A stretch of DNA of 64,000 bases from a bacterium (GTDB lineage: Bacteria; Hinthialibacterota; Hinthialibacteria; H5-UNCL2). The notes beneath the pieces were generated by a model, which saw only the letters and a list, made by a program, of their open reading frames with translations, ran no database searches and was not told the origin of the DNA. The stretch covers positions 1,103,677 to 1,167,676 of the forward strand of contig JABTUV010000001.1 in the NCBI GenBank assembly GCA_015075175.1. The letters run 5' to 3'. A program made the position numbers and the translations under genes. Below are positions 1,328 through 63,588 of this stretch, piece by piece. Position 1 is the stretch's first letter. Every line of letters begins with the position of its first letter.

Positions 1328-2838
1328 GCCGCCTGCCCTCCCGTCGCCGCCAGCATCAGGCTGTGTTCGTCCCAATCGGAAACGGGTTTCGCCTCGCCCA
1401 GCCGACCGCGCGCCATCACGGCGATGCGGTCCGAGACGCCTAGAAGTTCCGGAAGATAGCTGCTGACAATGAGGACGGCGCAGGGGCGATCCCCCAGTCG
1501 GCCGGCCGCCAGGTCGTCGATGAGTTGATAGATGAGCGCCTTGCTGGCGACGTCGATGCCGCGCGTGGGTTCATCCAGAAGCAGCACGTCGGCGCCGTGA
1601 TGAAGCAGTCGTGCCAGGGCGATCTTCTGCTGGTTGCCGCCGGAAAGATCGCGCACGCGCTGCGACGGTCCGGCGCAGCGGATGCCGAGCCGCTCGATCC
1701 AACGTTGCGTATTATGGTATTGCCGTGACGGAAGGACAAGCAACGGCAGGCGCGAAAGCGTGGCGTTATCGGCCAGCGAAAGCCCGAGCGCCAGCCCCTC
1801 CGCCTTGCGATCCTCCGATAGCATCCCCACTCCCTGGTCCCAGCGCCGCGTCGGCGACGCAACTCCCGTGATCGCCTTGACTCTCACGCTCCCCCGGCGC
1901 ACCGGGTCCAGTCCGAACACGGCGCGCAGAAGTTCGGTGCGTCCCGCGCCTACCAGGCCCGCGATTCCCAGCACTTCGCCGCGCCGCAGCGACAGGCTGG
2001 CGCACTGCGGCCGCGCCGTCCCCGCCAGCTCGCGAATCTCCAGCACCACTTCTCCCGCTTTTCGCTCCGAGCGTGGGTAGAGTTGTTCGACGCGACGGCC
2101 GATCATGTGGCCGACGATGTCCGAGACGCCCGCTTCCGCCGTCGCGCCCGTCGCCACGCAGCGCCCGTCGCGCAGGACCGTGTAGCGGTCGGAGATGCGC
2201 TTGACTTCCTCGATGAAGTGGGAGATGTAAACGATGGCGTGTCCCTGCGACTTCAAGCGCGCGATGACGGCGAACAGGCGCTCGATGTCCTGCCGCGACA
2301 GGCTGCTGGTGGGTTCGTCGAGCACGAGAATCCGGCATCCCACGGCCAGCGCGCGGGCGATCTCAACCAGTTGCTGGAGCCCGACGGAGAGCCGTCGCAC
2401 GGGCAGGTCGAGCGGGATTTCGGGATGCTCCAGTTGGCGGAGCGCGTCCAGCGCGCGACGCCGGACCTCGCCTCGTTGCACGAGACCCCAGCGGCTCGGC
2501 TCCATGCCCAGCGTGATGTTCTCCTCGACCGTGAGGTGTGGGGCGAGCGAGAGTTCCTGGTAGATCATGGCCACGCCGGCGCGGCGCGCCTCCAGGGGAC
2601 GCCGGGGCGCAAACGCCGCGCCGTCGATCAGCATCCGTCCCGCGTCGGGGAGGATCGCGCCCGACAGCACCTTCACCAGCGTGCTCTTGCCCGCTCCGTT
2701 CTCGCCCACCAGGGCGTGCACCTCTCCGGACGCGACGGCGAAGTCCACCCCCTCCAATGCCACGGTGGCGCCGAAGCGCTTGCGGATGCCCCGCATCGCC
2801 AGCCGTGGAACCGTATCCTCTGCGCCTACAGCGTTCAT
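1324..2838 (-). CDS. ABC sugar transporter ATP-binding protein with two nucleotide-binding domains (RbsA/MglA-like)
   Basis: Walker A GENGAGKST plus a duplicated NBD architecture; 504 aa. Confidence 0.85.
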   Translation of the reverse strand: MNAVGAEDTVPRLAMRGIRKRFGATVALEGVDFAVASGEVHALVGENGAGKSTLVKVLSGAILPDAGRMLIDGAAFAPRRPLEARRAGVAMIYQELSLAPHLTVEENITLGMEPSRWGLVQRGEVRRRALDALRQLEHPEIPLDLPVRRLSVGLQQLVEIARALAVGCRILVLDEPTSSLSRQDIERLFAVIARLKSQGHAIVYISHFIEEVKRISDRYTVLRDGRCVATGATAEAGVSDIVGHMIGRRVEQLYPRSERKAGEVVLEIRELAGTARPQCASLSLRRGEVLGIAGLVGAGRTELLRAVFGLDPVRRGSVRVKAITGVASPTRRWDQGVGMLSEDRKAEGLALGLSLADNATLSRLPLLVLPSRQYHNTQRWIERLGIRCAGPSQRVRDLSGGNQQKIALARLLHHGADVLLLDEPTRGIDVASKALIYQLIDDLAAGRLGDRPCAVLIVSSYLPELLGVSDRIAVMARGRLGEAKPVSDWDEHSLMLAATGGQAA

Positions 2839-3814
2839 TCGGCCATCTTGGGGGCCAGCAGCGCCTGCGCCTCGGGCGTGTTCATGTTCCGGCGCGTCAC
2901 GATCATCACGCCCGTATCGATGCGCTTCTCCACCGCCGCGCCGGAAAGATGTGCGACCATCGTCTTCACGGCCAGATAGCCCATCTTATAGGGATTCTGA
3001 AGCGTCAGGGCATCCAGATGGCCCTGGCGCAGGGCGTCGACCAGTTGCGGCGAACTGTCAAAGCCGATGAAGCGCACCTTGCCGGCCAGACCGCCGTCGC
3101 GCAGCGCGCGCAACATGCCGAAGGTGGACGACTCGTTGGGGCAAAAGATGCCGTCGATGGTCAGCGAGCCGTCGCCCACGCGCAACGGGGCCAGGAGATT
3201 TTCGCTCGCCTTGTAGGCCGATTCGGTCGTGGGGCCGGCGTACTGATTGGCGCTGATGACCTGAATGCCGGGATGGGCGGCGATGGCCTCCAGGAACCCT
3301 GCTCGCGCTGGCTGGTGCTGTCGGAGCCTTCCTGGTAGCGCAACACGGCCAGCGTGCCGCTCACTCCCACCAGCCGCGCCATTTCTTCTCCTGCCAGCCG
3401 GCCTCCCATCCTGTTGTCGGTCGCCACGAAGCTGACGTAATCTTCGCTCTTGAGTCCCGAGTCGAAGATGACGACGGGAATGCCGGCCTTGACGGCATCC
3501 GCCACGGGCGCGCGCAGGGCGGTATCGTCCAGCGGCGCCAAGACGATGCCGGAGACCCGGCGCGAGATGAAGTCCTCGACGACGGAAATCTGCTGGTCCC
3601 GGTCGTCTTCCTTCAGCGGGCCTTTCCAGATGATCGCCACGCCCAGTTCGGCGCCCGCGTCGGCGGCGCCGGCGTGCACGGACTTCCAGAACTCGTGCGT
3701 CGTGCCCTTGGGAATCACGGCGATGGTGGTCTTGTCGGGCTTTCCCCCGCAGGAGGAGAACAGGCACACGCCGGCCGACAGGAGAGACGCGAGAAGGAGA
3801 GACTTGCGCATCAT
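2835..3814 (-). pseudogene. Periplasmic sugar-binding lipoprotein (RbsB-like PBP) with an apparent -1 frameshift near 3295
   Basis: The N-terminal part (lipoprotein signal LLLASLLSAGVCLFSSCGG and PBP N-lobe) and the C-terminal part (PBP C-lobe) lie in two different frames that join at ...REQG|FLEA. A single missing T in GGTTCC explains the break. Confidence 0.7.
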
Positions 3815-4065
3815 CGTGGGTACCGCCTGGATGAGATTACGTATCACGATACTAACGAGTCGGGGCGGCGTCAATGCGTTGCAAGGGTCCCGTATCCAGC
3901 TGCGGGAATCTCAGCAGTGAGGGGCTGAAGCCGCGGACGCCCGGGCGCATACTGGCGCGGCGGCCAGCAGCCGCACTCCACACTGGTTTCCGGCTTGACA
4001 GCGCCGCGGCAGCGTCCATCATGGCAGTCCCTCGCTCAAGTTCCACACCAGGTGGAGGTGCACTC

Positions 4066-8335: not shown

Positions 8336-8356
8336 CGAACTTTGCGCGGGGACAGC

Positions 8357-10096
8357 GACATGAGGGACGTGGACGGTATCATGCATGATCTTCTGGACAA
8401 AATGGTGGCGGCGCGGCAGCTCTCCTCCGCCGACGCGGTCGCACTGCAACGACAGTGCGCCGCTGGAGAGCTCCCCGCCCCCCAGTCCGAAGAGGATGTC
8501 CTGCGCTGGCTGGCGCGGGAATACGATCTGCCTTATACCGATCTGGACAACGTCGAGCCGGACCGGGCCCTCTTGTCGCTGTTCCCCGCGCGGGTCCTCT
8601 TGAAGGAGGAGATTCTCCCGCTGCAGAGGGTTAACGGCAGCGTCGAGGTCGCCGTCTCCCGCCTGTTTGCTACCGAAGGGTTGGACACGCTCAAGGCCCT
8701 CACGGGCCTCTCGCTCTCGCCCGTGCTGGCTCCCTCCGGCGCCATCGCCCGTGAGATGAAAAAGCGGCTCGGCGTCGGCGCGGATACGCTGGACACGCTG
8801 GAGGAGGAAACCCCCCTGCAAGTCGTCGACGAGGCGGCCTCCGACGACGCCAACCTGGACGAGGCCGCCGAGGACGCCTCCATCATCCGCTTCGTCAACC
8901 AGGTGCTGGCCGACGCCATCGCCCTGCGCGCCACCGACATCCACCTGGAGCCGTTTGAAGAGGAGTTTCGCATCCGCTACCGGATCGATGGGATGCTCCA
9001 AGAGGTGCCCGTGCCGGTGCAGATCAAGCGCTTCCAGCCCGCCATCGTGTCGCGCGTGAAGATTCTCTCGCATCTGGACATCGCCGAGAAGCGCTTGCCG
9101 CAGGACGGCCGCATCAAGGTGCGGGTCGAGGGCGCCGAGGTGGATGTGCGCGTCTCCGTCATCCCCATGCTCCACGGCGAGGCCGTGGTCATGCGTCTCC
9201 TGCGCCAGGGCACGACGCTTTTGGGACTCTCCGAACTGCGCATGGCCGAGCGCGAGGCCCGCATCTTCCGCCGCATTCTCTCCTTGCCGCACGGCATCGT
9301 GCTCGTCACCGGCCCCACCGGCAGCGGCAAGACCACCACCCTTTATTCGGCGCTCTCCGAGATCAACGACGCGGTCCGCAAGATCATCACCATCGAGGAC
9401 CCGATCGAGTACCACATGCACGGCGTCAACCAGATTCAAGTGTCGGAGAAGGCGGGGCTTACGTTCGCCCGCGGTCTGCGCTCGATCCTCCGGCACGACC
9501 CGGACGTGGTGCTGGTGGGGGAAATCCGCGACTCGGAGACGGCGCAAATCGCCGTGCAGGCGTCGCTGACGGGACACCTGGTGTTTTCGACGCTGCACAC
9601 CAACGACGCGCCGGGGGCGCTGACGCGCCTCGTGGACATGGGAGTCGAGCCGTACCTGGTCGCCTCCTCGCTGGAGGCGGTGCTGGCGCAGCGGCTGGTG
9701 CGGGTGCTTTGCCCGCGCTGCAAGGTCGAGGAGACTTCGCAAAAGGCGCTGGCCTTCCGCGCCGAACTGGGCCTGCCCGAGGACCGGCCCATCTATCGCG
9801 CCGTGGGCTGCCCCGCCTGCCGGCATACCGGCTTTCACGGACGCCGCGCGGTCTTTGAATTGATGGACATGAACGACGAAATCCGCTCCATGGTTCTGCA
9901 TTCATGCTCCTCGGGCGAGATTCGCGCCGTGGCGCGCAAGACCGGCATGAAGTCGCTGTGCGAGGACGGCTGGCGGATCGTGGCGGAAGGCGAGACCACC
10001 CTGGAGGAGGTGCTGCGGGTGACCCGCAGCGACCGCTCCGACGGGGCCTCGCGCCTGGCGGAGGACGCGCAGATTTCCACCACGGAGAGCGCGTAA
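8357..10096 (+). CDS. gspE: Type II secretion / type IV pilus assembly ATPase (GspE/PilB)
   Basis: N-terminal GspE_N-like domain, Walker A GPTGSGKTT, and a CPxC...CPAC tetracysteine motif; about 580 aa. Confidence 0.9.
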   Translation, partial: DMRDVDGIMHDLLDKMVAARQLSSADAVALQRQCAAGELPAPQSEEDVLRWLAREYDLPYTDLDNVEPDRALLSLFPARVLLKEEILPLQRVNGSVEVAVSRLFATEGLDTLKALTGLSLSPVLAPSGAIAREMKKRLGVGADTLDTLEEETPLQVVDEAASDDANLDEAAEDASIIRFVNQVLADAIALRATDIHLEPFEEEFRIRYRIDGMLQEVPVPVQIKRFQPAIVSRVKILSHLDIAEKRLPQDGRIKVRVEGAEVDVRVSVIPMLHGEAVVMRLLRQGTTLLGLSELRMAEREARIFRRILSLPHGIVLVTGPTGSGKTTTLYSALSEINDAVRKIITIEDPIEYHMHGVNQIQVSEKAGLTFARGLRSILRHDPDVVLVGEIRDSETAQIAVQASLTGHLVFSTLHTNDAPGALTRLVDMGVEPYLVASSLEAVLAQRLVRVLCPRCKVEETSQKALAFRAELGLPEDRPIYRAVGCPACRHTGFHGRRAVFELMDMNDEIRSMVLHSCSSGEIRAVARKTGMKSLCEDGWRIVAEGETTLEEVLRVTRSDRSDGASRLAEDAQISTTESA

Positions 10097-10102
10097 CCCC
10101 CC

Positions 10103-11327
10103 ATGTCGCAGTTCCGTTATCGCGCGCTGCAAGCGGATGGAGGAATCGCCGAGGGGGCGCTGGATGCGCCCGGCCGGCATGAGGCGATGCGGCTACTGGA
10201 GGCGCGCGGCCTGCGTCCGGTGGGACTCTTTGAGGCCGGCGAAGCCGCCCCCGACCGCGCCGCGCCCCAACCCGAGGTCGCAAAAAAGAAAATCCCCCGC
10301 CGCGTGGTCGAGGACTTCACGCGGCAACTCTCCAGCCTCCTGTCGGCGGGCATTCCCCTCGCCCGGGCGTTGCGCATTCTCTCCAAGGAGGCCGCCAGTC
10401 CCGCCGCCGGCGCCACCTGGCGCGCCGTCCACGACCGCGTGGTCGATGGCGCCGCCCTCGCCGACGCCCTGACTCAATTCCCCTGAGACCTTTCCCCGCG
10501 TCTACGTCGCCATGGTCGCCGCCGGCGAAAGCGGCGGATTCCTGGACGTGGTGCTCAACCAGATCGCCGATTTCCAGATGCGCGAACGCGAACTTCGCTC
10601 CCGCATCATCTCCGCCATGATCTACCCCGCGGTCCTCCTGTGTCTCGCCGTGGCCGTTCTTGTTTTTCTCCTGACGTTCTTCATTCCGCGTTTTCAGGCG
10701 ATCTTTGCCGGATTCGGCGCGCAGTTGCCCCTGATTACACGCATCATTCTCTCCGCCAGCGAGGTTGCGCGGCACTACGGCGTGCTGGTCGTGCTCGTGC
10801 TCGTGGTGGGAGGGTTTCTGGCGCGGCGGGTGCTGGAGACGGAGCGGGGGCGGCGCGCCTGGGAGAGCCTCATCCTGCGCCTGCCCACCTTCGGCAGGCT
10901 TTCCGCCCGCTTCGCCATGACCCGCTTCTGCCGCATGTTGGGGACCTTGATCGGCGCGGGCGTGCCGCTGGTCAACTCGCTTTCCGTCGCCCGCCGCTCC
11001 CTGGGCAACCAGATTCTCGTCGACGCCGTCACCGCCAGCATCGACCGCGTCAAGGAAGGCGAGTCGCTGGCCGCCAGCCTCGCCGACACGCCTACCCTCT
11101 TTCCCGGCTCCATGATCGAGATGATCTCCGTAGCCGAAGAGACGGGACGGCTGGACAGCGAACTGGTGCGCCTGGCCGACGCCGCCGACTCGGACCTGGA
11201 CCGCCAACTGCGTATGGCCGTCGCCCTGGCCGAGCCGGTCATGCTGTTCCTTCTGGCCGGTTTCATCGGAACCATTTTCATCGGCATGGTCATGCCCATT
11301 TTCTCTTTGCAGGACTATATCAAGTAA
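10103..11327 (+). CDS. gspF: Type II secretion system protein F (GspF/PilC) with an apparent +1 frameshift at a C4 run near 10485
   Basis: The two halves of a GspF-like protein sit in two frames: ...ALTQFP* and then ETFPRVYVAMVAAGESGGFLDVVL. An extra T after CCCC explains the break. Confidence 0.8.
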
Positions 11328-11344: not shown

Positions 11345-11842
11345 ATGAGAATAACATGTTCGCAGCCGCGCCGCCGCCAATTTGAGCGGGTGGGTCGGGC
11401 ACTCTTGCCTGACAAGCCGGGTCAGGCGACCCGGCCTATCCGCGCGGGCTTCACGCTGGTCGAACTCTTGCTCGTACTCCTGATCCTGGCGGTGCTTGCG
11501 GCCATCGTCGTGCCCAAGTTCGTGGGCCGCAGCGAGCAGGCGCGCATCACCGCTGCGCAGACGCAACTGGCCATGTTCGAGTCCCAGCTGGACGCCTTCG
11601 AGGTGGACAACGGGTACTATCCCAAAGGCTCGGACGGCCTCTTGCAGTTGGTCGAGGAGCCGCGCGACGCCAAAAACTGGCGCGGCCCCTACTAGAAGGA
11701 GATTCCCCTCGATCCCTGGGGCAACGCTTACGTCTACGAGTATCCCGGCCGGCACAACGAACGCGGCTACGACCTCATGTCGCTGGGACCGGACGGCCGC
11801 GCGGGCACGGAAGACGACATCTGCAACTGGAGGACGAAGTAA
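11345..11842 (+). CDS. gspG: Major pseudopilin GspG carrying an in-frame TAG at 11693-11695
   Basis: Prepilin motif [23 protein letters not shown]. The conserved W-GPY-L-...-DPWGN-Y-Y motif reads [21 protein letters not shown] in a single frame, so TAG takes the place of the Leu codon. Confidence 0.75.
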
Positions 11843-11846: not shown

Positions 11847-12326
11847 ATGAAGTCGCCTTCCCGTCGTCGCGGGCTGACCATGATCGAGCTCTTGATCGTG
11901 ATGGCGCTGCTCACCATGGTCATGGCGCTGTCCCTGCCGCGCCTTTCGCGCTTTATGGGCGGGCGCGCGCTGACCGAGGAGACGCGCCGCTTCATCGCCC
12001 TGTCCCGCTATGCGCGCAGCCAGGCGATTACCCTGGGCGTGCCCATGCAACTGTGGTTGGACGCCGAGAACGGCCGCTATGGGCTTTCTCCTCTCTCCGG
12101 TTACGAGGATGCCGACGACCGCCCCGTCACCTTTGGACTGGGCGAGGACCTGCGCCTCCAGTTGCTCGACGGCCTCGCCGACAAGTCCGGCATGGCGTAC
12201 CTGACCTATTGGCCGGACGGGCGACTGGACGAGTCCGGGCCGCAGCGGATTCTCATCTGGAAGGGCGACGAAGAGGTCGTCCTGATCACGCGCTCGGGAC
12301 GCGATTTCGAGGTCAGGGCGGAGTAA
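11847..12326 (+). CDS. Minor pseudopilin (GspH-like)
   Basis: Prepilin-type N-terminus GLTMIELLIVMALLTMVMAL; 159 aa. Confidence 0.6.
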   Translation: MKSPSRRRGLTMIELLIVMALLTMVMALSLPRLSRFMGGRALTEETRRFIALSRYARSQAITLGVPMQLWLDAENGRYGLSPLSGYEDADDRPVTFGLGEDLRLQLLDGLADKSGMAYLTYWPDGRLDESGPQRILIWKGDEEVVLITRSGRDFEVRAE

Positions 12327-12328
12327 CC

Positions 12329-12736
12329 ATGAAGCGGCGCGGCGCATTTACGTTTGCGGAGACGCTGGCGGCGATGGCGTTCGCCGCCTTCGTCGTGCCC
12401 GTGGCCATTCACGCGGTCGTCATCGCCAATCGGGCCGGCGTGGCCGCCGAGCGCAAGCGCGTGGCCGCCGACCTGGCCCGGCATTGCCTGACCGACATCG
12501 TGGTAGGCGGCGATTGGCGCGATGCCGACAAGCGCGGCGATTTCGGCGAGGACCGGCCCGGCTACCGCTGGCAGCTCTCTGACCAGGCCTGGAGCGAGGA
12601 CGCCATGCGCGAGATTACCGTCGAGGTGTTTTACACCGTGCAGGACCGCGAGTATCGCGTCGCGCTCGCCACCCTCGTGCCCGAGACGGAGGAGACGGTC
12701 TCCAGCTCCTCCGCGGAAGGGACGGCGGCGCCATGA
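12329..12736 (+). CDS. Minor pseudopilin (GspI-like)
   Basis: N-terminus RRGAFTFAETLAAMAFAAFVV is prepilin-like; 135 aa. Confidence 0.5.
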   Translation: MKRRGAFTFAETLAAMAFAAFVVPVAIHAVVIANRAGVAAERKRVAADLARHCLTDIVVGGDWRDADKRGDFGEDRPGYRWQLSDQAWSEDAMREITVEVFYTVQDREYRVALATLVPETEETVSSSSAEGTAAP

Positions 12737-12881: not shown

Positions 12882-13577
12882 TTTTTGCCAGCTTGCGCAG
12901 GAGGCTTCACGCTCTTGGAACTCTTGATCTCCAGCGTCATGGTCGCCATCCTCGTGGCCGCGCTGTATCCCGTCTTTCGCGGCGTGGTGCAGATGGAGAA
13001 CACCACGACCGACATGCTGGCGGCGGGCCGTCCCCTCGCCGACCTGGCGTTGCCGCTGCGTTTGGACCTGGAGAACGCCGTCGCGCCCGGCGGCCTTCTG
13101 GCCGGTCCGCTGCTCTCCGAGAAAAACGAGGAGGCCCGCGCCCGCCGCGACCGGCTGGAAATCTATACCACCTCCGCGCGCATCTCCGACAGCAGTCCCT
13201 GGGGCGAAATCTGCAAGGTCGAGTACACCCTGGAAGAGCCGGAAACCGGCGGCCGCGACGCGGGCAGGGAACTCATTCGCACCGTGACCCGCAACCTGCT
13301 GGCTTCCAGCGATTCGACTCCCACGGCGTACCTGCTCATCGACGGCGTGGAGTCGCTGGCCTTCTCGTTCTTTGACGGCGAGACCTGGCAGGACAGCTGG
13401 GACGCCACCAGTGCGGACACGGTGATGCCGGAGGCGATCCGCGTGGACATCACATTCGTTGCCGCAGAGGCTGGCCGGCGCCAGCGGCCGCCCCTGTCGT
13501 GGACGTTCGAGATCGCCGCGCAGCCGGTCAGCACGCCGACAGCCGCGTCCAGCCAGGGCGGGGGAGGGGGACGGTGA
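12882..13577 (+). CDS. Minor pseudopilin (GspJ-like); the start is uncertain because of a possible frameshift in a T6 run
   Basis: Prepilin motif GGFTLLELLISSVMVAILVAA. The nearest ATG (12818) is in another frame, so the candidate start is TTG at 12882. Confidence 0.5.
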   Translation, partial: FLPACAGGFTLLELLISSVMVAILVAALYPVFRGVVQMENTTTDMLAAGRPLADLALPLRLDLENAVAPGGLLAGPLLSEKNEEARARRDRLEIYTTSARISDSSPWGEICKVEYTLEEPETGGRDAGRELIRTVTRNLLASSDSTPTAYLLIDGVESLAFSFFDGETWQDSWDATSADTVMPEAIRVDITFVAAEAGRRQRPPLSWTFEIAAQPVSTPTAASSQGGGGGR

Positions 13578-14953
13578 TGAAAGCGTCTTCCGTGCCCGCC
13601 AAGAGCAGGCTCAAGCCTGTACTCCGGCATCGACGCGCGCGCGGCGCGGTCCTCGTGATCGTGATGTGGATCGCCCTGGGATTGGTGAGCGTGGCGCTGC
13701 TTTTCGGCGGGTCGATGATGCTGGAGTATCGCGCGGCGGACAACGCGGTTGCGGCACGGCAGGCCGAGACCGCGGCCGCGGGGGCCGCCCGCTACGTGCG
13801 CTTCTTGCTCTCCGACCTTACCACCCCGGGCGAGCCCCTGGACGCCGCCGACTACTCCGCCGAGGCCGTCCCCGTGGGCGAGGCCCGCTTCTGGCTGGTG
13901 GGCCGCGATCCCAACGAGGACCCCGACGAGCACCCGCGTTTCGGCCTCGTGGACGAAGCCGGCAAGCTCAACCTCAATACCGCCACCCGCGAGATGCTCG
14001 AGCTTCTGCCCCGCATGACCGCGGAACTGGCCGCCGCCATCGTGGATTGGCGCGACGAGGACGACGACCTCTCCCCCGACGGCGCCGAGTCGGAGACCTA
14101 TCTCAAACTCGACCCGCCCTACAACTGCAAGAACGCCCCCTTCGAGAGCGTGGATGAACTGCGCCTCGTTTACGGTGCGGACCTGGAGATTCTCTACGGC
14201 GAAGACACCAACCGCAACGGCGTCCTGGACCCCAACGAGGATGACGGCGACGCCAGCCCGCCCAGCGACAACGCCGACGGGCGGCTGGATGCGGGCATCT
14301 GCGAGTATCTGACGGTGTACAGCCGGCAGTCCAACACGCAGGCGGACGGCACGCCACGCGTCAATATCAACGGCGGCCGGCGGCAGATTGAAGAGGTCCT
14401 GGTGGAGGCGCTGGGCGAGACGCGTACCGCCGAGATCATGCCACTGCTCGGCCCCGGCGGGCAGTTCAGGAGCCTCCTGGAGTTCTACTATCGCGGCCAG
14501 ATCACCCTGGACGAGGCGGCGCTCCTGGAGGACGTGCTCACCGTGTCCGACGGTGATGAAATCCGCGGGTTGGTCAATATCATCACGGCGCCCGAACCGG
14601 TCCTCCTGTGCCTGCCCGGGATCGGCGAGGAGGGCGCGCCCGCGGTCATCGCCTATCGCCAGAATAAGACCGCCGACGAGCTGGCCACGGTCGCCTGGCT
14701 GCTTGCGGCGCTCGCGCCTGAGCGGGCGCTGGAGGCAGGCCCGTATATTACCGTCAAGAGCTACCAGTGGACGGCCGACGTGGCCGCGACAGGCCGCAAT
14801 GGGCGCGGCCTGGCGCGCATCCAGTGGGTCTTCGACCTCGCCGGCGGGCAACCAACCACGCTCTATCGGCGCGACCTTTCCCATCTCGGCTGGCCGCTGG
14901 GCGTGGACCTGCGCGCGACCTTGACCGCAGAAGCACGGGAGGAGCAGCGATGA
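13577..14953 (+). CDS. gspK: Type II secretion system protein K (large minor pseudopilin)
   Basis: N-terminal TM (VLVIVMWIALGLVSVALLF), about 458 aa, Asp-rich region (calcium-binding-like) and a helix-hairpin-helix-like stretch. Confidence 0.65.
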   Translation: MKASSVPAKSRLKPVLRHRRARGAVLVIVMWIALGLVSVALLFGGSMMLEYRAADNAVAARQAETAAAGAARYVRFLLSDLTTPGEPLDAADYSAEAVPVGEARFWLVGRDPNEDPDEHPRFGLVDEAGKLNLNTATREMLELLPRMTAELAAAIVDWRDEDDDLSPDGAESETYLKLDPPYNCKNAPFESVDELRLVYGADLEILYGEDTNRNGVLDPNEDDGDASPPSDNADGRLDAGICEYLTVYSRQSNTQADGTPRVNINGGRRQIEEVLVEALGETRTAEIMPLLGPGGQFRSLLEFYYRGQITLDEAALLEDVLTVSDGDEIRGLVNIITAPEPVLLCLPGIGEEGAPAVIAYRQNKTADELATVAWLLAALAPERALEAGPYITVKSYQWTADVAATGRNGRGLARIQWVFDLAGGQPTTLYRRDLSHLGWPLGVDLRATLTAEAREEQR

Positions 14954-16374: not shown

Positions 16375-16897
16375 ACGGCGCGAGCGCGTGCTGGCCGTCC
16401 TGGCCATCGCCGTTCTGGCGATATGGGCCGCCGACCAGTTGCTCATCGAGCCGCTGTGGGGCCTCTGGAAGGCGCGCCAGGAGCGGCTCTCGGAGCTGTC
16501 GGCATCGATTCTCCACGGCCGCTCGTTGGTGGACCGGGCGGCGGCCATCTCGGAACGATGGCAGGAGATGCGGGGGCGCAGCCTGCCGGCGGACGAGCCG
16601 GCGGCCGAGCAGGCGGTCCTCGTGGCCGTCTCCCGCTGGGCGGGCACCAGCCGATTGGGCGTCTCGGCCCTGAAGCCCCGCTGGCGGGAGGATGAAGGCG
16701 GACGCCGCCAGATCGAATGGAACGCCGAGGCCCAGGGCGATATCGCCCAAATCGCCCGCTTTCTTTACGAATTGGAACGGGATTCGCTAGCCTTGCGCGT
16801 GGAGGAACTGGATATCACCGCCCGCGACAACCGCGGCGAGACGCTGGCCCTGAAGCTCCGCTTCACCGGGCTCGTCTTTGAGGAGAAGACGTCATGA
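16364..16897 (+). CDS. GspM / PilO-like bitopic inner-membrane protein
   Basis: N-terminal TM VLAVLAIAVLAIWAA, 177 aa; position in the cluster. Confidence 0.45.
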   Translation: MELKRRERVLAVLAIAVLAIWAADQLLIEPLWGLWKARQERLSELSASILHGRSLVDRAAAISERWQEMRGRSLPADEPAAEQAVLVAVSRWAGTSRLGVSALKPRWREDEGGRRQIEWNAEAQGDIAQIARFLYELERDSLALRVEELDITARDNRGETLALKLRFTGLVFEEKTS

Positions 16898-17505
16898 CGA
16901 CCACGGCGGCCATCCCGGCTCGACTGCTGGTGGCGGCGTTCCTGGCGCTCCTCTTGGTGGCGCTGTGGTCGCCCGCATGGGGTCAGGATGAACGCCGCCC
17001 GCGGGATGCGGGCTTCGAGCGCTTCCGCGTGATCGTGGAGCGCAACATCTTTGAACCCAACCGGGGTCCGGCGCGCGGACATCGTCCCGCCCAGGAGGTT
17101 CGCCGCGACGATCCGCCGCCGGTCGAGACCTTGGCGCTTCTGGGCGCCGTCGTCTACGACAGCACGGTCGTCGCCGTCTTCACCGGATCGCGTCCCGATT
17201 TCCGGGCGACGGTGCGGCCCGGCGACAATCTGGCCGATATGCGAGTAGCGGAGATCAGGATTGGCGGGGTAACATTTGAGGGGGCAAGCGGCCGACTGGA
17301 ATTGCCGGTCGGTTGGCATCTGCGCCGGGTCGCCGGTGGGGAGTGGCAGGTCGCGTCCGGGCCGCTCCCGCAGCAGGTGCGGCGCAGGGAAGAGAGTCGC
17401 GCGGTTTCCGCCTCCGGCTCGCAGCCCGGCAGGCCGGCCGGGGTGGTGGAGTCCGACACCGCGCGACGCATGAGGGAGAGACGCGAGAGAGAGGAGTCGG
17501 AGTGA
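16894..17505 (+). CDS. GspC/GspN/PilP-like periplasmic protein
   Basis: Signal or TM N-terminus, 203 aa, charged C-terminus; position immediately upstream of the secretin gene. Confidence 0.35.
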   Translation: MTTTAAIPARLLVAAFLALLLVALWSPAWGQDERRPRDAGFERFRVIVERNIFEPNRGPARGHRPAQEVRRDDPPPVETLALLGAVVYDSTVVAVFTGSRPDFRATVRPGDNLADMRVAEIRIGGVTFEGASGRLELPVGWHLRRVAGGEWQVASGPLPQQVRRREESRAVSASGSQPGRPAGVVESDTARRMRERREREESE

Positions 17506-19026
17506 TGAATATCAAAAAGTCGATGCTCAGAGTGGCACTTCTGGTCGCCCTGGCAGCCATGCTTCCGGTCGTCGGCGCGGCGACCGAAGCGCCACCGCGC
17601 CGCCCGCCGCCTGGTTTCGCAAAACGCCCCCCCCAGTTCCGCCGAGGGCCTGCGCCTCAATTTCCGCGGCGCGCCCCTCGATACCGTGCTCGACTACCTG
17701 TCCGAGGCGGCGGGCTTCGTGATCGTGCGCGAGGCCCAGGTGGACGGGACCGTCGATGTCTGGAGCCACCAGCCGCTTTCCCGCGAGGAGGCGGTGGAAT
17801 TGCTCAACACCGTCCTCTACCAGAAGGGGTACGCCATCCTGCAGCGCGGGCGCATCCTGACCATCGTCTCCCGCAATGCCGCCACCCGCAGCGACATTCC
17901 GGTCAAGACCGGCCGCAAGCCCGAAGAGATTCCCCGCACCGACCAGCTGGTGACCATGGTCATTCCCGTCTCCTACGCCGACGCCGACAAGCTGGTGGAG
18001 AACCTGCGGCCGCTTCTGCCGCCTGAGACCACGCTCTCCTCCAACCACGGCAGCAACTCGCTGATTATCACCGGCCCCCAGACCGACATCCGGCGCATGG
18101 TGGAGATCGTGGACGCGCTGGACACCTCGCTGGCGGCGGTCTCGACCGTGCGCGTTTTTCCGCTGCGCTACGCCGACGCCAAGCAATTGGCCAGCGTGGT
18201 CACGGAAATCTTCAAGCAGGAGGATCAGAGCTCGCGCGACGGCAATCGCATGGAGCGGTTCATCCGCGGGATGCGCGGCGGGCCGTGGGGCGGAGGCGAC
18301 ATCTCCCTGGACGAGGGCGGCCCGGCCGCCCTCCGCGGCAATGTCCGCGTCATCGCCGTCGCCGACGAGCGCACCAATTCCCTCGTGGTCAGCGCCCCCG
18401 AGGAAGTCATGCCCACCATCGCCGGACTCGTCGCCGAGGTGGACACCGTCAGCGAGGATCTGACCCAGATTCGCGTCTTTCCGCTGCAATACGCCAGTGC
18501 GGAGGAGATGGCGCAGGTCATTACCGACATCTTCCAGCAGCGGACCCAGACCGGCCAGACTACCCAGACCCAGCAGGGGCCGCGCTTTTTCGGCTTCGGC
18601 GGGCGTGGTCCTTTCGGCGGCGCCCAGAATAATCAGAACGCCGCCAACACCTCCGCCACCGGCCGTCGCACCGTGCAGGAAAACACCGTGCTGGCGGTCG
18701 CCGATCTGCGCACCAATTCGGTCGTGGTGCGCGCCGCCAGCGAGCTGATGCCGCAGGTCGAGCAGATGATCCGCGGCCTGGACGAGAACCCCGCCAAGGC
18801 CAAGAAGGTCCACGTCTACCGCCTGGAGAACGCCGATCCCGAGCAGGTCGCGCAAATCCTGGAGGGCATGTTGTCGGGTGAGTCCGGCACCTCCAGCTCG
18901 TCCACCGGCAATCGCAACCTGCGTTCGCAGAATACTTCCAACACCCGCGGCAACACGGGGACTTCCGCCAATCGCAACACCGGCACGCGCAATACCGGTA
19001 CGCGCAACACGGGATTCAACTTCTAA
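17505..19026 (+). CDS. gspD: Secretin N-terminal periplasmic domains (N0, N1, N2, N3-like), frameshifted in a C8 homopolymer
   Basis: The signal peptide MNIKKSMLRVALLVALAAMLPVVGAA is in frame 0. The N0 domain (LNFRGAPLDTVLDYLSEAAGFVIV...) is in frame +1, and the junction is the C8 run at 17627-17634. The C-terminus is a low-complexity NTGTRNTGTRNTGFNF tail. No secretin pore domain is present in this ORF. Confidence 0.7.
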
Positions 19027-19049
19027 CGCGGCAGGAAAGGGAAAAAGCA

Positions 19050-20195
19050 ATGCCCATGACATGGAATGGACGACAGGCGCAACCTACCTCGCGCGACAAA
19101 CGGGCAGGCTGGATCGCCGGGCTGCTGTGCGCCGGACTCTTCTGGGCGACCACCGCTTCCGCCCAGTTTTTCCAGCAGCAGTTCGGCGGGGTGCAGTCCC
19201 GCGCCCGCGCCTCGACTTCCGGCGCCGTCAACAAGGCCGGCCTCTCCGAGGATACCGTTATTCAGATCGATCCCGACACCGGCGCCCTCATCATCGTCAC
19301 CGACGAGGAGACCCACGGGCAGTTGTCCGAGGTGATCCGCGAGCTGGACCGTCCCGTCCCGCAGGTGCTCATCAACGTGCTCTTCCTGGAGGTCACGCAC
19401 ACGAAAGACCTCGACCTAGGCGTGGAGGGGAGTTTCGGCTTCGACGGCAGCAGCCCCGCCGACCGCGACACCCTCCGCAGCGCGTTCGGCGTGGCCGCGG
19501 AGACGCGCGGCGGCTTCTATTATCTGCTCGAGCGCAACCTCAACGTGACCTTGCGCGCCCTCTCCGGCGTGGGCAAACTGGAGGTGCTCTCGCGGCCCTC
19601 CATCCTCACCCGCAGCAATCGCGAGGCCGTCATCACCGTCGGTCAGGTGCTGCCCGTCATCCGCAACAGCCGCATCACCCAGGACGGCCAGACCCTCAAC
19701 ACCATCGAGGAGAAGGACGTCGGCATCATCCTGCGCGTCACCCCCTTCATCACTTCCGACGGCCTGGTCGAGATGGACCTCTCGCCGGAGATTTCCACCC
19801 TCACCGGCGACACCGTTCCCATTACCGAGACCATCAACTATCCGGTCATCGCCAAGCGTTCGGCGGAGACGCGCGTGGTCGTGCCCAATGGGCGCACGGT
19901 CGTCATCGGCGGGCTTATGGAGGACAGCAAGACGCAGGAGGTCTCGAAAGTTCCCGTCCTCGGAGACATTCCGCTTTTGGGGTTGGCCTTTCAGCGCCGC
20001 AAGGACGCCAAGTCCAAGACCGAGCTCCTGATCTTTCTGACGCCGCACGTGCTGATGCGCTCCAGCGAGCTGGACGCCATGTCGGAAGCCGAGACCAACC
20101 GCGCCGAGCTGGCCCCCAAGGTCTTCGACCGGCAGCAGATGCAGAAATACCTGGATATTCCCGCGGAGGAGCCGCAGGAGATTGAACAACCCTAG
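19050..20195 (+). CDS. gspD: Secretin C-terminal (pore-forming) domain protein with its own signal peptide
   Basis: Signal-like MPMTWNGRQ...GLLCAGLFWATTASAQ, an N3-like domain, then the secretin domain VLINVLFLEV...PVLGDIPLLGLAF...ELLIFLTPHVL. Its ATG is preceded by an AGGAAAGGGAAAAAG ribosome-binding site. Confidence 0.8.
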   Translation: MPMTWNGRQAQPTSRDKRAGWIAGLLCAGLFWATTASAQFFQQQFGGVQSRARASTSGAVNKAGLSEDTVIQIDPDTGALIIVTDEETHGQLSEVIRELDRPVPQVLINVLFLEVTHTKDLDLGVEGSFGFDGSSPADRDTLRSAFGVAAETRGGFYYLLERNLNVTLRALSGVGKLEVLSRPSILTRSNREAVITVGQVLPVIRNSRITQDGQTLNTIEEKDVGIILRVTPFITSDGLVEMDLSPEISTLTGDTVPITETINYPVIAKRSAETRVVVPNGRTVVIGGLMEDSKTQEVSKVPVLGDIPLLGLAFQRRKDAKSKTELLIFLTPHVLMRSSELDAMSEAETNRAELAPKVFDRQQMQKYLDIPAEEPQEIEQP

Positions 20196-22065: not shown

Positions 22066-22069
22066 CCTC

Positions 22070-22420
22070 GTTTGCGGAACGCAATCGTAATCGTAATCGT
22101 AGTCGATTACGGCTCGTCACCATGCTCGTGCTCGCAAGTCGTAATCGTACTCGTACGGATAGATCTGTCATTTCGACCGAAAGATGCTGTCATTTCGACC
22201 GAGAGATGCTGTCATTTCGACCGATGGATGCTGTCATTTCGACCGAGAGATGCTGTCATTTCGACCGAAGGATGCTGTCATTTCGACCGAAGGATGCTGT
22301 CATTTCGACCGAAGGGAGAAATCTTTCTCGCTGTTACCGCCGGGCGGGTGCGATGCAGAAGGTTTCTGCCTTCGGTCGAAATGACGGCTGCGACGACGAG
22401 TACGAACAAGATTAGGATTA
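22070..22420. repeat. Composite element, copy 2: CGTAAT hexamer array, then 7 tandem 22-bp copies of the left-arm motif (nnnGATGCTGTCATTTCGACCGA), then core and right arm, then hexamers
   Basis: Direct reading of 22158-22315. The core CTGTTACCGCCGGGCGGGTGCGATGCAGAAG is nearly identical to the core of copy 1. Confidence 0.75.
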
Positions 22421-22422
22421 CC

Positions 22423-23778
22423 ATGCCCAACCACGCGCGAATCCTCGTTGTGGACGACGACGCCAGCCAGCGCAGTCTCCTGGAATGCTTTCTGCGCGGG
22501 CGCGGTTACGAGGTCTTGACGGCGGATACCGGCGAGGCGGCGCTGGCGATCCTCTCGTCAGAGGCCATCGACATGGTGATCTCGGACGTGCGCATGCCGG
22601 GCATTTCCGGACTGGAGACGCTGCGGCGCGCGCGGCAGTCGCATGCGGTCCTGCCCGTGTTGTTGGTGACCGCCTACGCGGACATCCGCGACGCGGTCGG
22701 CGCGATGCGCGACGGGGCGGTCAATTACCTGGAAAAGCCCATCGACCTGGATGAGCTTCTGGCGACGGTGCAGGCGGCCCTTGGGCCGCGCGAGGCGCCG
22801 CCGCCGTGGCTGCCCGCCGGTCTCAGATTGCCCGAGCACGTGGTCGCCCGCAGCCCGCTCACGCGCGAGGTTTTCCGCCAGGCCGCCCTGGTGGCGCCCT
22901 CGGATGCCCGCGTGCTGATTACCGGCGAGAGCGGCGTGGGCAAGGAAGTGGTCGCCGACGTGATCCACCTTTGGAGTCCGCGCGCCCGCGGACCCTTTCT
23001 CAAAGTCAACTGCGCCGCCATCCCCGAGTCGCTCTTGGAGAGCGAATTGTTCGGCCACGAGAAGGGCGCGTTTACCGGCGCGGTGGGACGCCGCGCCGGC
23101 CGCTTCGAGGAGGCCGAGGGCGGTTCCATCCTCCTGGACGAAATCGCCGAGATGTCCCCGGCGCTCCAGGCCAAGCTGCTGCGCGTCACGCAAGACGGCA
23201 GCTTTGAGCGCGTCGGCTCCAACGAGCGGCAAAGGAGCAACGTGCGCATCCTGGCATCCACCAACCGCAACCTGGAGGCGGAGGTCGCCGAAGGGCGTTT
23301 CCGCGAGGACCTCTTTTTTCGGCTCAACGTGGTGGAGATTTACGTCCCGCCCCTGCGCGAGCGGCAGGCGGACATCCTGGAACTGGCGCACTTGTTCGCC
23401 GAGCGCTTCGCCAAGCGCAAGCTGCGCTTTTCGGCGGCCTTCGCCACCTGCTTGGAACTGTACGACTGGCCGGGCAACGTGCGCGAGTTGGCCAACGCGC
23501 TGGAGCGCGCCGTGCTGCTGGCGGGCAGCGAACTCCTCCTGCCCGAGCACCTCCCCCGACGCATCCAGAAGGCCGGCGTCGCCTCAACCGACGCCGATGC
23601 TCCCGCCAAGGGCACGCGCATGGTGGACATGGAGCGCTCCCTGATTCTCTCCACCCTGCGGGAGCACAACTTCAGTCGTACCGAGACCGCGCGCACCCTG
23701 GGCATGAGCCGCCGCGCCCTGCTCTATAAGCTGCGCCGCTATGCCGAGGAGGGTTACGACGTCGGCTCCCGCTCGTGA
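22423..23778 (+). CDS. Sigma-54-dependent response regulator (NtrC/PilR family enhancer-binding protein)
   Basis: REC domain (VVDDD...D-VISDVRMPG), AAA+ sigma-54 interaction domain (GESGVGKE, GAFTGA, ESELFGHEKGAFTGA) and a C-terminal Fis-type HTH. Confidence 0.9.
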   Translation: MPNHARILVVDDDASQRSLLECFLRGRGYEVLTADTGEAALAILSSEAIDMVISDVRMPGISGLETLRRARQSHAVLPVLLVTAYADIRDAVGAMRDGAVNYLEKPIDLDELLATVQAALGPREAPPPWLPAGLRLPEHVVARSPLTREVFRQAALVAPSDARVLITGESGVGKEVVADVIHLWSPRARGPFLKVNCAAIPESLLESELFGHEKGAFTGAVGRRAGRFEEAEGGSILLDEIAEMSPALQAKLLRVTQDGSFERVGSNERQRSNVRILASTNRNLEAEVAEGRFREDLFFRLNVVEIYVPPLRERQADILELAHLFAERFAKRKLRFSAAFATCLELYDWPGNVRELANALERAVLLAGSELLLPEHLPRRIQKAGVASTDADAPAKGTRMVDMERSLILSTLREHNFSRTETARTLGMSRRALLYKLRRYAEEGYDVGSRS

Positions 23779-28200: not shown

Positions 28201-28279
28201 GTCTGGCCAAACCCATCTCCGAGCGGTAGTCTTAAGCCTCGCGTGACGGCCCGCTTGTATCTACGAAGGAGGACGTGAC

Positions 28280-30322
28280 ATGAGTCATCGTCTTACCCGG
28301 CGCGACTTTCTGGCGACGACTGGACTGGCGACGGTCGCCGGACTTGCTCCCGCCTGGGTCCACGGGCGCGCCCCCGGCCCAATATCCTCATCATCCTGGC
28401 CGACGACTTGGGCTTCTCCGACATCGGCTGCTTCGGCGGCGAAATCCACACCCCCAACCTGGACGCGCTGGCGGGCAACGGCCTGCGCATGACGCACTTC
28501 TACAATACCGCCCGCTGCTGTCCCAGCCGCGCCAGCCTGCTCACGGGTCTCTACCCCCACCAGGCGGGCGTCGGCTGGATGGTCGCCGATTACGACAAGC
28601 CCGGCTATCGCGGCTTTCTCTCCGACCGCGTTGTGACCATCGCCGAGGCCCTGCGTCCGGCCGGCTACACGACCCTCATGTCCGGCAAGTGGCACGTCGG
28701 TGAGGTCCGCCCCCACTGGCCCGTGGACCGCGGTTTCGACGAGTATTACGGCATCGTCTCCGGCGGCAGCAACTACTGGAAACTGGACCGGGGCGCGTCT
28801 TCGCCCGCAACGACCAGCCCATCGTGCCGGACGCCCCCGGCTTTTACATGACCGACGCCTTCACCGACAACGCCCTCTCCTTTCTGGACCGGTACGCTGG
28901 CGGAGACAAGCCCTTCTTCCTGTATCTCGCTTACACCGCCCGCACTGGCCGCTGCACGCTTGGCCGGAGGACATCGAGAAGTATCGCGGCCGGTATCTCT
29001 GCGGGTGGGATCGGCTACGGCGGCGGCGGCATGAACGCATGATCGGCATGGGCATCGTCCGAAAAGAATGGCCGCTGACGCCCCGCGACTCCGTCGCACC
29101 CGCCTGGGACAGCCTGGGCGAAGACAGGAAACGCGACCTGGACCTGCGCATGGCCATCTACGCCGCGCAGGTGGATCGCATGGATCACAACATTGGCCGC
29201 GTGGTGCAACGACTGCGTCAATTGGGCCGGCTCGATAACACGTTGATCCTCTTTCTGGCCGACAACGGCGGCTGCGCGGAGGGCGGGCCGTTCGGCTTCG
29301 ACCGCGGAGAGGGACCCTTGGGAACCGCCGATTCGTACTCCAGTTACGGCCTCGGCTGGGCCAACGCCAGCAATACGCCTTTCCGCCGTTACAAGCACTG
29401 GGTCCACGAGGGCGGCATCGCCACCCCGCTGATCGCCCACTGGCCGGCAGTTATCAAGGCGCGTGGCACCCTTTCCGATCAGCCCGGCCACATCATCGAT
29501 CTCATGGCGACCTGCCTGGACGTGGCCGGCGCGAAATATCCCCGGGAGTTCGGGGGACATGAAATAACGCCGCTGGAGGGTAAGAGCCTCCTGCCTATCC
29601 TGGAGGGGAAGAAGCGCAAGGGGCACGAGGCCATCTTCTGGGAGCACGAGGGCAACCGCGCCGTGCGCGCCGGCGACTGGAAACTGGTGTCGCGCTTTCC
29701 CGGCAAGTGGGAACTCTACAACCTGCAAGAGGACCGCACGGAACTCCACGACCTGGCCGCCGAGCATCCCCGCAAGGTGCGGGAATTGGAGGCGCTCTAC
29801 AAACAGTGGGCGGAGCGCAGCCAGGTCCTGCCCTGGCCGGTGCGAACTCCGCCGTCTTCCGGCCGGCGCGAGTTCGTGCTCAAGGTCGGGGACCGGCTCG
29901 AGGGCGGGGAGGTTCCCAACATCGCCGAGACGGCGTTGCGCGTGAGTGCGAGCGTTACAGCAACGGGGGACGGCGTGATCGTCGCCCAGGGCGGTTCCCA
30001 GGCGGGCTTCGCGCTCTCCGTCGAGGATGGCCGGCCGGCGTTTACCGTGCGCAGCTGGCAAGCGACCACGACCATTAGGTCGGGACAGTCGATCCTGGGA
30101 CGCAAAGTGACGCTCCGGGCGCAGTTGGACGAAAACGGCGCCATGACGCTCTGGATCGACGACGAGAAGACGGCGAAGGGTTCCGCGCCTATTCTGATTC
30201 ACACCGTGCCCGGTGAGGGCCTTTTTGTAGGACGTGATCCCGGCAATCCCGTGGGCGCCTACGCGGCTCCCAGCGCCTTTGCAGGCACGATCCACGAAGT
30301 GCGCCTTACCCTCTTGCCGTAG
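28280..30322 (+). pseudogene. Arylsulfatase (formylglycine-dependent sulfatase, TAT-secreted) with 3 homopolymer frameshifts
   Basis: TAT signal RRDFLATTGLATVAGLA. Sulfatase motifs NILIILADDLGFSDIGCFGG and CCPSRASLLTG. The frame breaks fall at a C5 run (28371), a G4 run (28790) and a C3 run (28939). Confidence 0.8.
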
Positions 30323-31228: not shown

Positions 31229-31378
31229 TTGCGCAGCGCCTTGCCCCGAGTAGGCCAGAGGCCGTATCGAGGGGTGCTGCGCATCCGCGTACCCCCGCCA
31301 GCTTTGCCGGTACGGCGCAGCACGCTGCGTAACCACAGCCAGGCCTTTGGTACGGGATGATTGGCAAGGAGTGACATC

Positions 31379-32988
31379 ATGCAGTGGTTCGTTCTTCTGG
31401 GCACGGCGTTTTTCATCCTTCTGGTCGCGTCGCTCAGTTTTGTGGCCTCGCGCTACAAGCGCTGCCCCTCCGACAAGATTCTGGTGATCTACGGCAAGGT
31501 GGGGCGCGGGCAGTCGGCCCGCTGCATCCACGGCGGCGGCGCCTTCATTTGGCCGCTCATCCAGGACTACGCCTTCATGCGCCTCACCCCCATGACCATC
31601 TCCATCCCCCTCCAGAACGCCCTCTCGATGCAGAACATCCGCATCAACGTCCCCAGCACCTTCACCATCGGCATCTCGGTCGATCCGGCGGTGATGAACA
31701 ACGCCGCCGAACGCCTCCTGCACCTGGAGGTGCGCGACATCGAGGAGATGGCCAAGGAGATCATCTTCGGACAACTGCGTCTGACCGTCGCCTCGCTGAC
31801 CATCGAGCAGATCAACCAGGACCGCGAGAGCTTTCTGGAGGCGATCCGCAAGAACGTCGAGCCGGAGCTGAACAAGATCGGGCTTTACCTGATCAACGTG
31901 AACATCACCGACATCACCGACGAATCGGACTACATCGACAGCATCGGCAAGAAGGCGGCGGCGGAGGCCATCAATCAGGCCAAGATCGACGTGGCCCAGC
32001 AGGACAAGCTGGGCGCGATCAGCCACTCAGGGCCTGCGCGCGACGGACCATCAAGGTCGCCGAAAACACCCAGGCCGAGAAGAGGAAGGCGGCCAAAGCG
32101 GACCGGCGCGTCTACGATGCAACAGCAGGGAGACGACGGCCTCGGTGGGCAGGCGGCCGCCAATCCGACGCGAGATCAAGGTTGGCCGAAAACCTGGCTC
32201 AGGCGAGAAGGGCAAGAAGGCGGCCGAAGCGGACAAGCGCGTTTACGTCTCCGCCCAGGAGGCCGACGCGGTAGCCGGCGAGAACACCGCCAAGGCGCGC
32301 ATCGCCGACGTGGACGCCGAGCTGGCCGTCAAGCAGGCCGCCGCGCTGCAGCGCGCAGAAGTCGCCCGCCGCGAGGCCCAGGTCGAGATTCAGAAGGCCC
32401 AGTATCGCGCCGAGCAGGAGCGCCTCACCGCCGAAGAGGTGGTCAAACAGGAAATCTCCAAAAAGAAGATCGAGATCGCCGCCGAAGCCCAGGCCGAACG
32501 CCTCCGCCGCGAGGCCAGGGGCGAGGCCGACGCCATCCTGCTCAGGTACGAGGCCGAAGCCAAGGGCATCCGCCAGGTGTTGGAGTCCAAGCGCAGGGCT
32601 ATTCCAGCCTGGTCAAAAGCTGAGGGGCGATGCCAAGGCCGCCGCTACCCTCCTAATGATCGAGAAGATCGAGGAGATCGTGGCCCGCCAGGTGGAAGCC
32701 ATCAAGAACCTGAAGATCGACAAGATCACCGTCTGGGACAGCGGCGGCGCCAACGGGTCATCGACCTCCAGTTTTATCTCCAGTCTGATCAAGAGCCTGC
32801 CGCCGCTGCAGGAGATCGCGCAGATGGCGGGCGTCGAGCTGCCCGGCTACCTGGGACGCATGGCGGCGCCAAGCCCCCGCCAACCGGGCAGAGTCAGGCT
32901 GACACCGCTCATGATTTGCGCATTGTCATCTGGAATTGCGTGTCCCAAAATGGTTGCGGGAACAAGAAAAACCCGAGTCCGGCAGTAG
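31379..32988 (+). pseudogene. Flotillin-like SPFH domain protein (YqiK/FloA-like) with several frameshifts
   Basis: N-terminal TM plus SPFH domain (31379-32020) in one frame; the charged AEA.R/IKVAEN repeat region and C-terminus (DKITVWDSGG...GVELPGYLG) are spread over at least 3 frames. Confidence 0.7.
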
Positions 32989-32989
32989 C

Positions 32990-33720
32990 GGGAAAAATAA
33001 AAAACCCGAGTCCTCGAGTAGCCGGTACTCCGGCGTATCGAGAGGACGGCCGCGACGCGAGCAGGCCGGTGTTACGCCGCCGTGCCTCTCGATACGGCCC
33101 CGAAGTTACCTGTTGTCTCCATTGGAGGTGCCTCGCCGGGGCCTACTCGAGGACACGGCTCAGCTTTTCGCATTCCGGCTTGGAAAGAGTTGTTGAATAG
33201 AGCAGTTCCGAAAGAAAGAAAAACCCGAGTCCTCGGGTAGCCAGAAAAGAAAACCCGAGTCCGACAGTAGCGGGAAAAATAAAAACCCGAGTCCGGCAGT
33301 AGCGGGAAAAACAAAAAACCCGAGTCCTCGAGTAGCCGGTACTCCGGCGTATCGAGAGGACGGCCGCGACGCGAGCAGGCCGGTGTTACGCCGCCGTGCC
33401 TCTCGATACGGCCCCGAAGTTACCTGTTGTCTCCATTGGAGGTACTCGCCGGGCCTACTCGAGGACACGGCTCAGCTTTCATTCCGGCTTGGAAAGAGTT
33501 GTTGAATAGAGCAGTTCGAAAGAAAGAAAACCCGAGTCCTCGGGTAGCCGGAAAAGAAAACCCGAGTCCGGCAGTAGCGGGAAAATAAAACCAGTCCGGC
33601 AGTAGCGGGAAAAACAAAAAACCCGAGTCCTCGAGTAGCCGGTACTCCGGCGTATCGAGAGGGCGGCCCCGATGCGCCCAGCCCGCCTTCGGAGCGGCCC
33701 CGGTCTTTCATCCTCCAAGG
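32990..33720. repeat. Complex repeat block: a ~345-bp unit duplicated in tandem, each copy holding forward and reverse family A hairpins plus 24-bp AAAACCCGAGTCC-N3-AGTAGCGGG subrepeats
   Basis: Direct reading: 33000-33345 is almost identical to 33345-33690. Confidence 0.7.
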
Positions 33721-33773
33721 GTGCGGCGCAGCCTCGTGAGGGCCTGCCTCTCCTCAGTCGCGGCGGCCGCCGA

Positions 33774-44406: not shown

Positions 44407-44670
44407 ACCACTCAAGAACACTATGTAATATACTTAATTTATTAAGCTTAAATAAAACAGCCGTAAAAAAGTGCTTTTTCGCGTTTTTTCCCTTGTGATT
44501 TCCCTTGGCTTCGACTATATATCGTATTGGATTGGTCCTATATGCCGGAGCAGCCCGCCGGGGTGCACTCCGGGGCGGAGTGCTCCAGCTCTGTCGGCAA
44601 CGCCCGCGCGCATGCCGCTCCGCTGGACCAAGTACCCCGCGACCAAGAGAGAATACGACCGAGGGAGCGT
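44407..44670 (+). promoter_or_regulatory. AT-rich island (suf promoter/operator region) with palindromes CTTAATttATTAAG and ATATA-N17-TATAT
   Basis: GC content drops sharply compared with the flanks; lies upstream of sufB. Confidence 0.45.
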
Positions 44671-46116: not shown

Positions 46117-46219
46117 CGTTGGAGGTTACCCCATGGACCTCGGAGTTCCGTGACTGTTCTAGCGTCGACGTCAAGGCCTCCGCAAGAGACGGAAGTCAAT
46201 CGACGCGACGTCAGAAGAG

Positions 46220-46612
46220 ATGGTGTCCGACTGGAAGAGGCGGCTTGAAGAAATCGTCAATCGTGGAAGTTCCGCGCCAAGTACGCGAGCGATTTTGCGG
46301 CGGAGCGTTTTGACGTCGAGCAGGTTGATGAATACTTGATGAGGACGAAAAAAAGATTAAACCAGGGCTGCCAGCCTGCCGACTTGTAAAAGGGGACACA
46401 TGCATCACGTTTGTGCCCAGCGCACTCTGGATCATCGGCGCCAAGGGTCGCGTCAACGTGTCCGCCGGCAAGAACCAATTCACGCTTTCGACATGGGAGG
46501 CGAGCAGGAAAGCCAAGCAATTGGCAGGTCGCCAGCCGAGACTTCGAGAAGGTGCTTGTACCGTTCAATGCCGACGCGTTTAAGCGCATCATCGGCGGCC
46601 AGATTGTATGAT
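46220..46612 (+). CDS. Small ORF(s) inside a lower-GC insertion (fragmented; possible antitoxin-like partner)
   Basis: Protein-like fragments: FRAKYASDFAAERFDVEQVDEYLMRTKKRLNQ and FVPSALWIIGAKGRVNVSAGKNQFTLSTWEASRKAKQLAG...DFEKVLVPFNADAFKRIIGGQIV. The last one ends TGA overlapping the next ATG (ATGA). Confidence 0.3.
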
Positions 46613-47060: not shown

Positions 47061-47081
47061 AATGAGGAGAGCTTGGTGGAC

Positions 47082-51896: not shown

Positions 51897-52002
51897 TTTC
51901 TTGCTTAACACGGGCGTACTCCTTTGCGTCAGGATGTGTAGTGGGAGCGGGAGGATTCCCCCGGTCGTCAACAGGTTAATCTAGCATGACGGCGGGAGCG
52001 GC

Positions 52003-55935: not shown

Positions 55936-55936
55936 A

Positions 55937-62139: not shown

Positions 62140-62245
62140 GCCTGTAGGCCGGCGCAGCACGCTGCGCAACTACAGCCGCACGATATCCCAGCACGCACCG
62201 ATGTCACCTGTACGTCGGCGCAGCACGCTGCGCAACTACAGCGTC
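62140..62245. repeat. Two direct copies of the family C hairpin (GGCGCAGCACGCTGCGCAACTACAGC) 68 bp apart
   Basis: Direct reading; GCGCAGC-ACG-CTGCGC inverted repeat. Confidence 0.65.
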
Positions 62246-63546: not shown

Positions 63547-63588
63547 GTCAAGAGGTTCATGGGCTATACGGGGGAGTCCCCTCTCCGG

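Follow-up and report, generated by a model that had tools for sequence, protein, structure and literature searches.

An in-frame TAG in a type II secretion gspG gene of a metagenome-assembled contig as a probable single-base consensus error

The TAG codon that interrupts the major pseudopilin gene gspG in the window analysed here (the whole 64-kb stretch of bacterial DNA) is very probably a single-base consensus error, a change of T to A at position 11694 in a noisy metagenome assembly. This reading of the sequence is preferred because three run assemblies have TTG at the codon and because the window contains many other frame breaks. Within an ordinary gspE-F-G-H-I-J-K...D operon, the real gene would carry TTG (Leu117) and its product would be a normal major pseudopilin of 165 aa. 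The in-frame stop is almost certainly not a biological feature. Positions of the genes and lesions are collected in Table 1, in which L001, L002 and L003 are the run assemblies described below.

The gspG reading frame begins with ATG at 11345, preceded by a GGAGG ribosome-binding site, and closes with TAA at 11840-11842. Domain and structure searches of the product were made with the TAG codon taken as Leu. Based on these searches, the 165-aa protein matches the Pfam T2SSG model (PF08334) over positions 2-108 of 108 with an E value of 6.7e-34, and the Pfam N_methyl model with an E value of 5.5e-07 and 29.3 bits (cutoff, 21.2). Chains of GspG, PulG, XcpT and EpsG in the PDB match the repaired product with E values of 1e-16 to 9.7e-23. 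The N-terminal leader of 35 residues is somewhat long, and residues 33-57 comprise a class III (prepilin) signal with the G|FTLVE cleavage/N-methylation motif followed by a hydrophobic helix. The identification of the gene as gspG in the original prediction was correct. The closest relatives in the databases, approximately 75-80% identical, are proteins of Verrucomicrobiota, Omnitrophota and Sumerlaeota MAGs.

The TAG sits at the hydrophobic position immediately after W-x-G-P-Y. In an alignment of 67 homologues this column was occupied by Leu (50 sequences), Met (12), Val (4) and Ile (1), while W112, G114 and Y116 were invariant. The DPW block and the C-terminal GPDG...DDI segment, both of which lie beyond the TAG, were kept in all of the aligned homologues, the latter in the conserved form GPDGxxGxxDDI. 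The C-terminal loop of EpsG/PulG binds calcium and is needed for function. As written, the open reading frame ends at residue 116 and about the last 45% of the T2SSG domain is missing. Both the frame and the 67-homologue column therefore agree with the description of the lesion as an in-frame TAG at the conserved GPY-L position.

Table 1. Location of gspG, its operon, frame breaks and TAG-terminated genes in the window
Feature	Position	Strand	Observation
gspG, major pseudopilin gene	11345..11842	+	165 codons + TAA; TAG at codon 117
In-frame TAG in gspG	11693-11695	+	Base 11694 is A here, T (TTG, Leu117) in L001, L002 and L003
gspE, secretion ATPase	8342..10096	+	Intact; Pfam T2SSE 5.2e-137, MshEN
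gspF	10103..11327	+	Split into ORFs 10103-10486 and 10512-11327; T2SSF domain divided between both
GspH-like minor pseudopilin	11847-12326	+	N_methyl 3.3e-07; GspH 20.6 bits, just below the cutoff of 21
Weak GspI-like ORF	12323-12736	+	T2SSI 0.0051, below cutoff
Uncharacterised ORF	Between GspI-like ORF and gspK	+	Downstream of gspG
gspK	13499-14953	+	T2SSK_1st 2.5e-15
ORF upstream of gspD	16894-17505
gspD, secretin	17509..20195	+	Split between two frames, which overlap at 18882-19026
gspD frame break	18882-19026	+	N0 + Secretin_N in frame 1; Secretin_N + Secretin in frame 2
Periplasmic sugar-binding protein	2838-3910	-	Frame break at ~3300; Pfam 1-142 in one frame, 135-257 in another
Sulfatase	28279-30322	+	Two frameshifts near 28.8 and 29.0 kb; Pfam 1-131, 141-171 and 172-301 in three frames
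Flotillin-like (Band 7/SPFH) gene	31361-33200	+	Apparent frame change at 32590-32630; C-terminal ...LLMIEKIEEIVARQVEAIKNLKIDKITVWDSGG... runs on in another frame
ABC permease (BPD_transp_2)	36377-37766	+	Split near 36.6 kb; domain divided between frames
sufB	44471-46060	+	At least 3 frameshifts in ~500 nt (45.5-46.0 kb); core domain 1-95, 102-192 and 192-216 in different frames
TAG-terminated oxidoreductase	62236-63588		C-terminal domain model ends at last residue before TAG
TAG-terminated second oxidoreductase	54550-55962
TAG-terminated ApbE gene	55937-56983
TAG-terminated ferritin gene	51423-51980
TAG-terminated secretin C-terminal ORF	Ends 20195
TAG-terminated sulfatase C-terminal ORF			Sulfatase + SGSH_C matches

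The gene lies in a recognizable type II secretion operon: it adjoins gspE and gspF and is accompanied by minor pseudopilin genes and a secretin gene. Curated Pfam cutoffs were passed in this operon by T2SSE, T2SSF, T2SSK, Secretin_N and Secretin. Comparison with the characterized family (GspG/PulG/EpsG/XcpT; PF08334; structures 5wda, 3g20, 2kep, 3fu1 and 1t92) revealed in common the G|FTLVE motif, a full T2SSG domain, the W-x-G-P-Y-[LM]...P-x-DPWG block and the GPDG...DDI segment, as well as the operon neighbours gspE, F, H, I, K and D. With T at base 11694, nothing biological sets the gene apart from known GspG major pseudopilins, among which it is an ordinary member. The break in gspD falls inside a low-complexity linker rich in Asn, Thr and Gly.

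The 116-aa stump is present in the public record as MBE7558281.1, "type II secretion system protein GspG [bacterium]", on a MAG contig of 1,277,840 bp, and the TAG thus belongs to the deposited assembly. The 90%-identity cluster of the stump also holds a 165-aa protein (P0121) which is identical to the window product except for Leu at residue 117. It is encoded on independently assembled contigs of three public sequencing runs, SRR11593520 (L001), SRR16472569 and SRR33012322. Codon 117 is TTG in L001, L002 and L003, which read CTACTTGAAGG where the window has CTACTAGAAGG, and the TAG is indeed, as had been proposed, one substitution away from TTG. Reads with TTG or CTG at this codon had been named in advance as the sign of an assembly error, and at the level of assemblies TTG is what was found in all three, one of them from the same strain; the sequencing substitution suggested in the original prediction is supported accordingly. 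Logan contigs are assembled from k-mers that were seen repeatedly in a run, so that the agreement among the three runs comes near to a read-level check. No exact match to a 42-mer spanning the gspG codon was found in the genome and metagenome contig collections scanned, and neither MBE7558281.1 nor any of the three run accessions gave a paper in a full-text literature search.

The 3,501-bp contig L001 differs from the window at two positions only: base 11694 is T instead of A, and the window has one T more at 10484. Because nothing else differs over this length, L001 is judged from the alignment to be the same strain as the window. Neither L001 nor L002 carries the additional T at 10484, and both encode an intact 407-aa GspF; in the window it splits gspF into ORFs of 127 and 271 aa. 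Further ordinary SNPs were observed in L002/L003 at 10664, 10766, 10769 and 11945. The only two private differences of the window from L001 both destroy genes, gspG and gspF.

The same comparison bears on whether the stop could be a genuine, strain-private TTG-to-TAG mutation, possibly accompanied by the frameshifts in gspF and gspD, in cells whose type II secretion system is being lost or which rely on secreting neighbours. This is considered unlikely. It would account for the disruption of three genes (gspD, gspF and gspG) in one operon, a pattern that also fits a sub-population in which the secretion system has really been lost, and for the 3.5 kb around gspG being otherwise free of errors relative to L001; with two differences, the rate there is far below that at 45.5-46.5 kb. 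However, the same-strain contig from SRR11593520 has both gspG and gspF intact and no other difference, and gspG shows no extra amino-acid substitutions, though these would be expected under relaxed selection. Frame breaks are also found in sufB, the sulfatase, the binding protein and the flotillin-like gene. Breaks in genes so unrelated show a general error process, under which several hits within a 12-kb operon are to be expected. The true nonsense mutation named in the original prediction is accordingly kept as a rival explanation, but the indel noise in unrelated genes, sufB among them, makes it improbable. A more specific form of it, quite improbable in its turn, would have the A at 11694 and the gspF and gspD frameshifts mark a sub-population of the uncultured organism that recently lost the secretion system while otherwise identical, co-occurring cells keep it. 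If true, the sub-population would be a "cheater" lineage, supported by public goods that its kin secrete.

Frame breaks in the remainder of the window were mapped from stop-to-stop ORFs and from the continuity of Pfam matches across frames. Among the genes affected is sufB (Table 1), in which core positions 123-167 additionally match weakly in a third frame. The SufB pieces still translate to canonical motifs, including CDS..GAHTFPY. SufB is a housekeeping protein of Fe-S assembly and is normally essential. That the pieces of such a gene still translate to conserved sequence speaks for errors in the sequence rather than decay of the gene.

A second contig from SRR11593520 (L004; 1,171 bp), which is of the same strain as the window, was aligned to positions 46051-47198, revealing 13 clustered differences in 1.15 kb. 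Among them are homopolymer changes (A5 vs A7, T4 vs T3, G3 vs G2, C2 vs C1) and deletions of 2-3 nt. An intact ORF of 161 aa is present in L004, while the window has only fragments of it. Substitutions were observed as well, at 46138, 46252 and 46256 within indel clusters and at 46532 in isolation. The claim that all remaining errors in the window are indels was therefore wrong, and substitution-type differences are not limited to gspG. A single sequence motif shared by the window-specific differences, as in a methylation-linked systematic miscall, was sought: of the motifs tried, GARGAG, AGCT and GAAG among them, none accounted for more than 7 of 15 differences, and each occurs at many error-free sites as well.

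Two overlapping genes, of 161 and 150 aa, lie between sufB and sufC (46051-47060), neither with a Pfam match; the 161-aa gene is the one shredded in the window by 13 indel/substitution clusters relative to L004. Downstream of the broken sufB, the sufC (47082-47852), sufD and sufS genes are intact. GC content is lower at 44-48 kb, ~0.60 compared to 0.66. In the ABC permease, a stretch of approximately 150 residues between the N-terminal part and the main part bears a weak resemblance to a periplasmic binding domain and could represent an unusual fusion or further frame errors.

The likely source of the gspG error would be a noisy long-read consensus that was incompletely polished. We infer a long-read origin from the 1.28-Mb length of the MAG contig together with the predominance of indels and homopolymer changes among the errors. 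Long-read metagenome assemblies are prone to residual indels, homopolymer miscounts and occasional substitutions, by which gene calls are split or truncated. In common with such errors, the window shows, relative to k-mer-based run assemblies of its strain, mostly indels of 1-3 nt and altered homopolymers, and unrelated ORFs are broken while their fragments remain conserved. The gspG lesion differs in being an isolated transversion and not an indel, and lone substitutions are less usual than indels as noise in a long-read consensus, which counts against a consensus error.

The uninterrupted frame beyond the TAG and the full conservation of the part downstream are also what would be seen if the codon were decoded, through read-through, a suppressor tRNA or a pyrrolysine-type reassignment, and full-length GspG were made. 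This explanation is extremely improbable. TAG closes at least six Pfam-supported genes of the window at the expected end of the protein (Table 1), and no other in-frame TAG within a domain was seen in the window. No tRNA genes were located in the 64-kb window. The stop is not conserved, since contigs of the same species have TTG and all 80 of 80 related species-representative genomes have sense codons at the aligned position: CTC in 27, CTG in 22, ATG in 11, ATC in 6, TTG in 6, CTT in 4 and single occurrences of others. The residue at codon 117 in these 80 genomes is always Leu, Met, Ile or Val and never a stop. Among the matches listed, none of 119 other protein homologues (complete or fragments) ends at residue 116.

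A regulatory stop, yielding either a deliberate 116-aa pseudopilin or a C-terminal peptide started from AAGGAG, is likewise only barely conceivable. The Shine-Dalgarno-like AAGGAG does follow directly after the TAG (11696-11701), but it is also present in the intact alleles, where it encodes a conserved Lys-Glu, and truncation would drop the invariant DPW block and the GPDG...DDI segment. Re-initiation at the AAGGAG was rejected: the codons that follow are ATT CCC CTC GAT, with no ATG, GTG or TTG at a suitable spacing, and the intact alleles carry the AAGGAG too. Read-through, reassignment and a regulatory stop, all raised in the original prediction, are very improbable even when taken jointly; TAG ends other genes of the window, and the relatives all have a sense codon here.

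If the TAG is a consensus error, its biological significance is small and its practical value lies in a warning on the annotation of this MAG. The 116-aa "GspG" MBE7558281.1 and the split gspF, gspD, sufB, sulfatase and other genes are most likely artefacts. Unless it is polished first, this MAG would mislead counts of pseudogenes, calls on the presence of secretion systems and searches for stop-codon recoding.

Two further features of the window were observed. An intergenic tandem repeat (32953-33746) consists of 2.3 copies of a unit of ~310 bp, the first two being 98% identical, with nested A-rich units of ~30 nt (AAAACCCGAGTCC-NN-CAGTAGCGGG / ...CTCGAGTAGCCGG) and a strong local AT skew of 0.28; it gave no match in Rfam. 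A sigma-54-dependent response regulator (22066-23778, + strand) has, at the level of Pfam matches, an extension of approximately 125 residues in front of its receiver domain. It shares its frame with the histidine kinase upstream, from which a single TGA separates it, and the two are probably adjacent genes.
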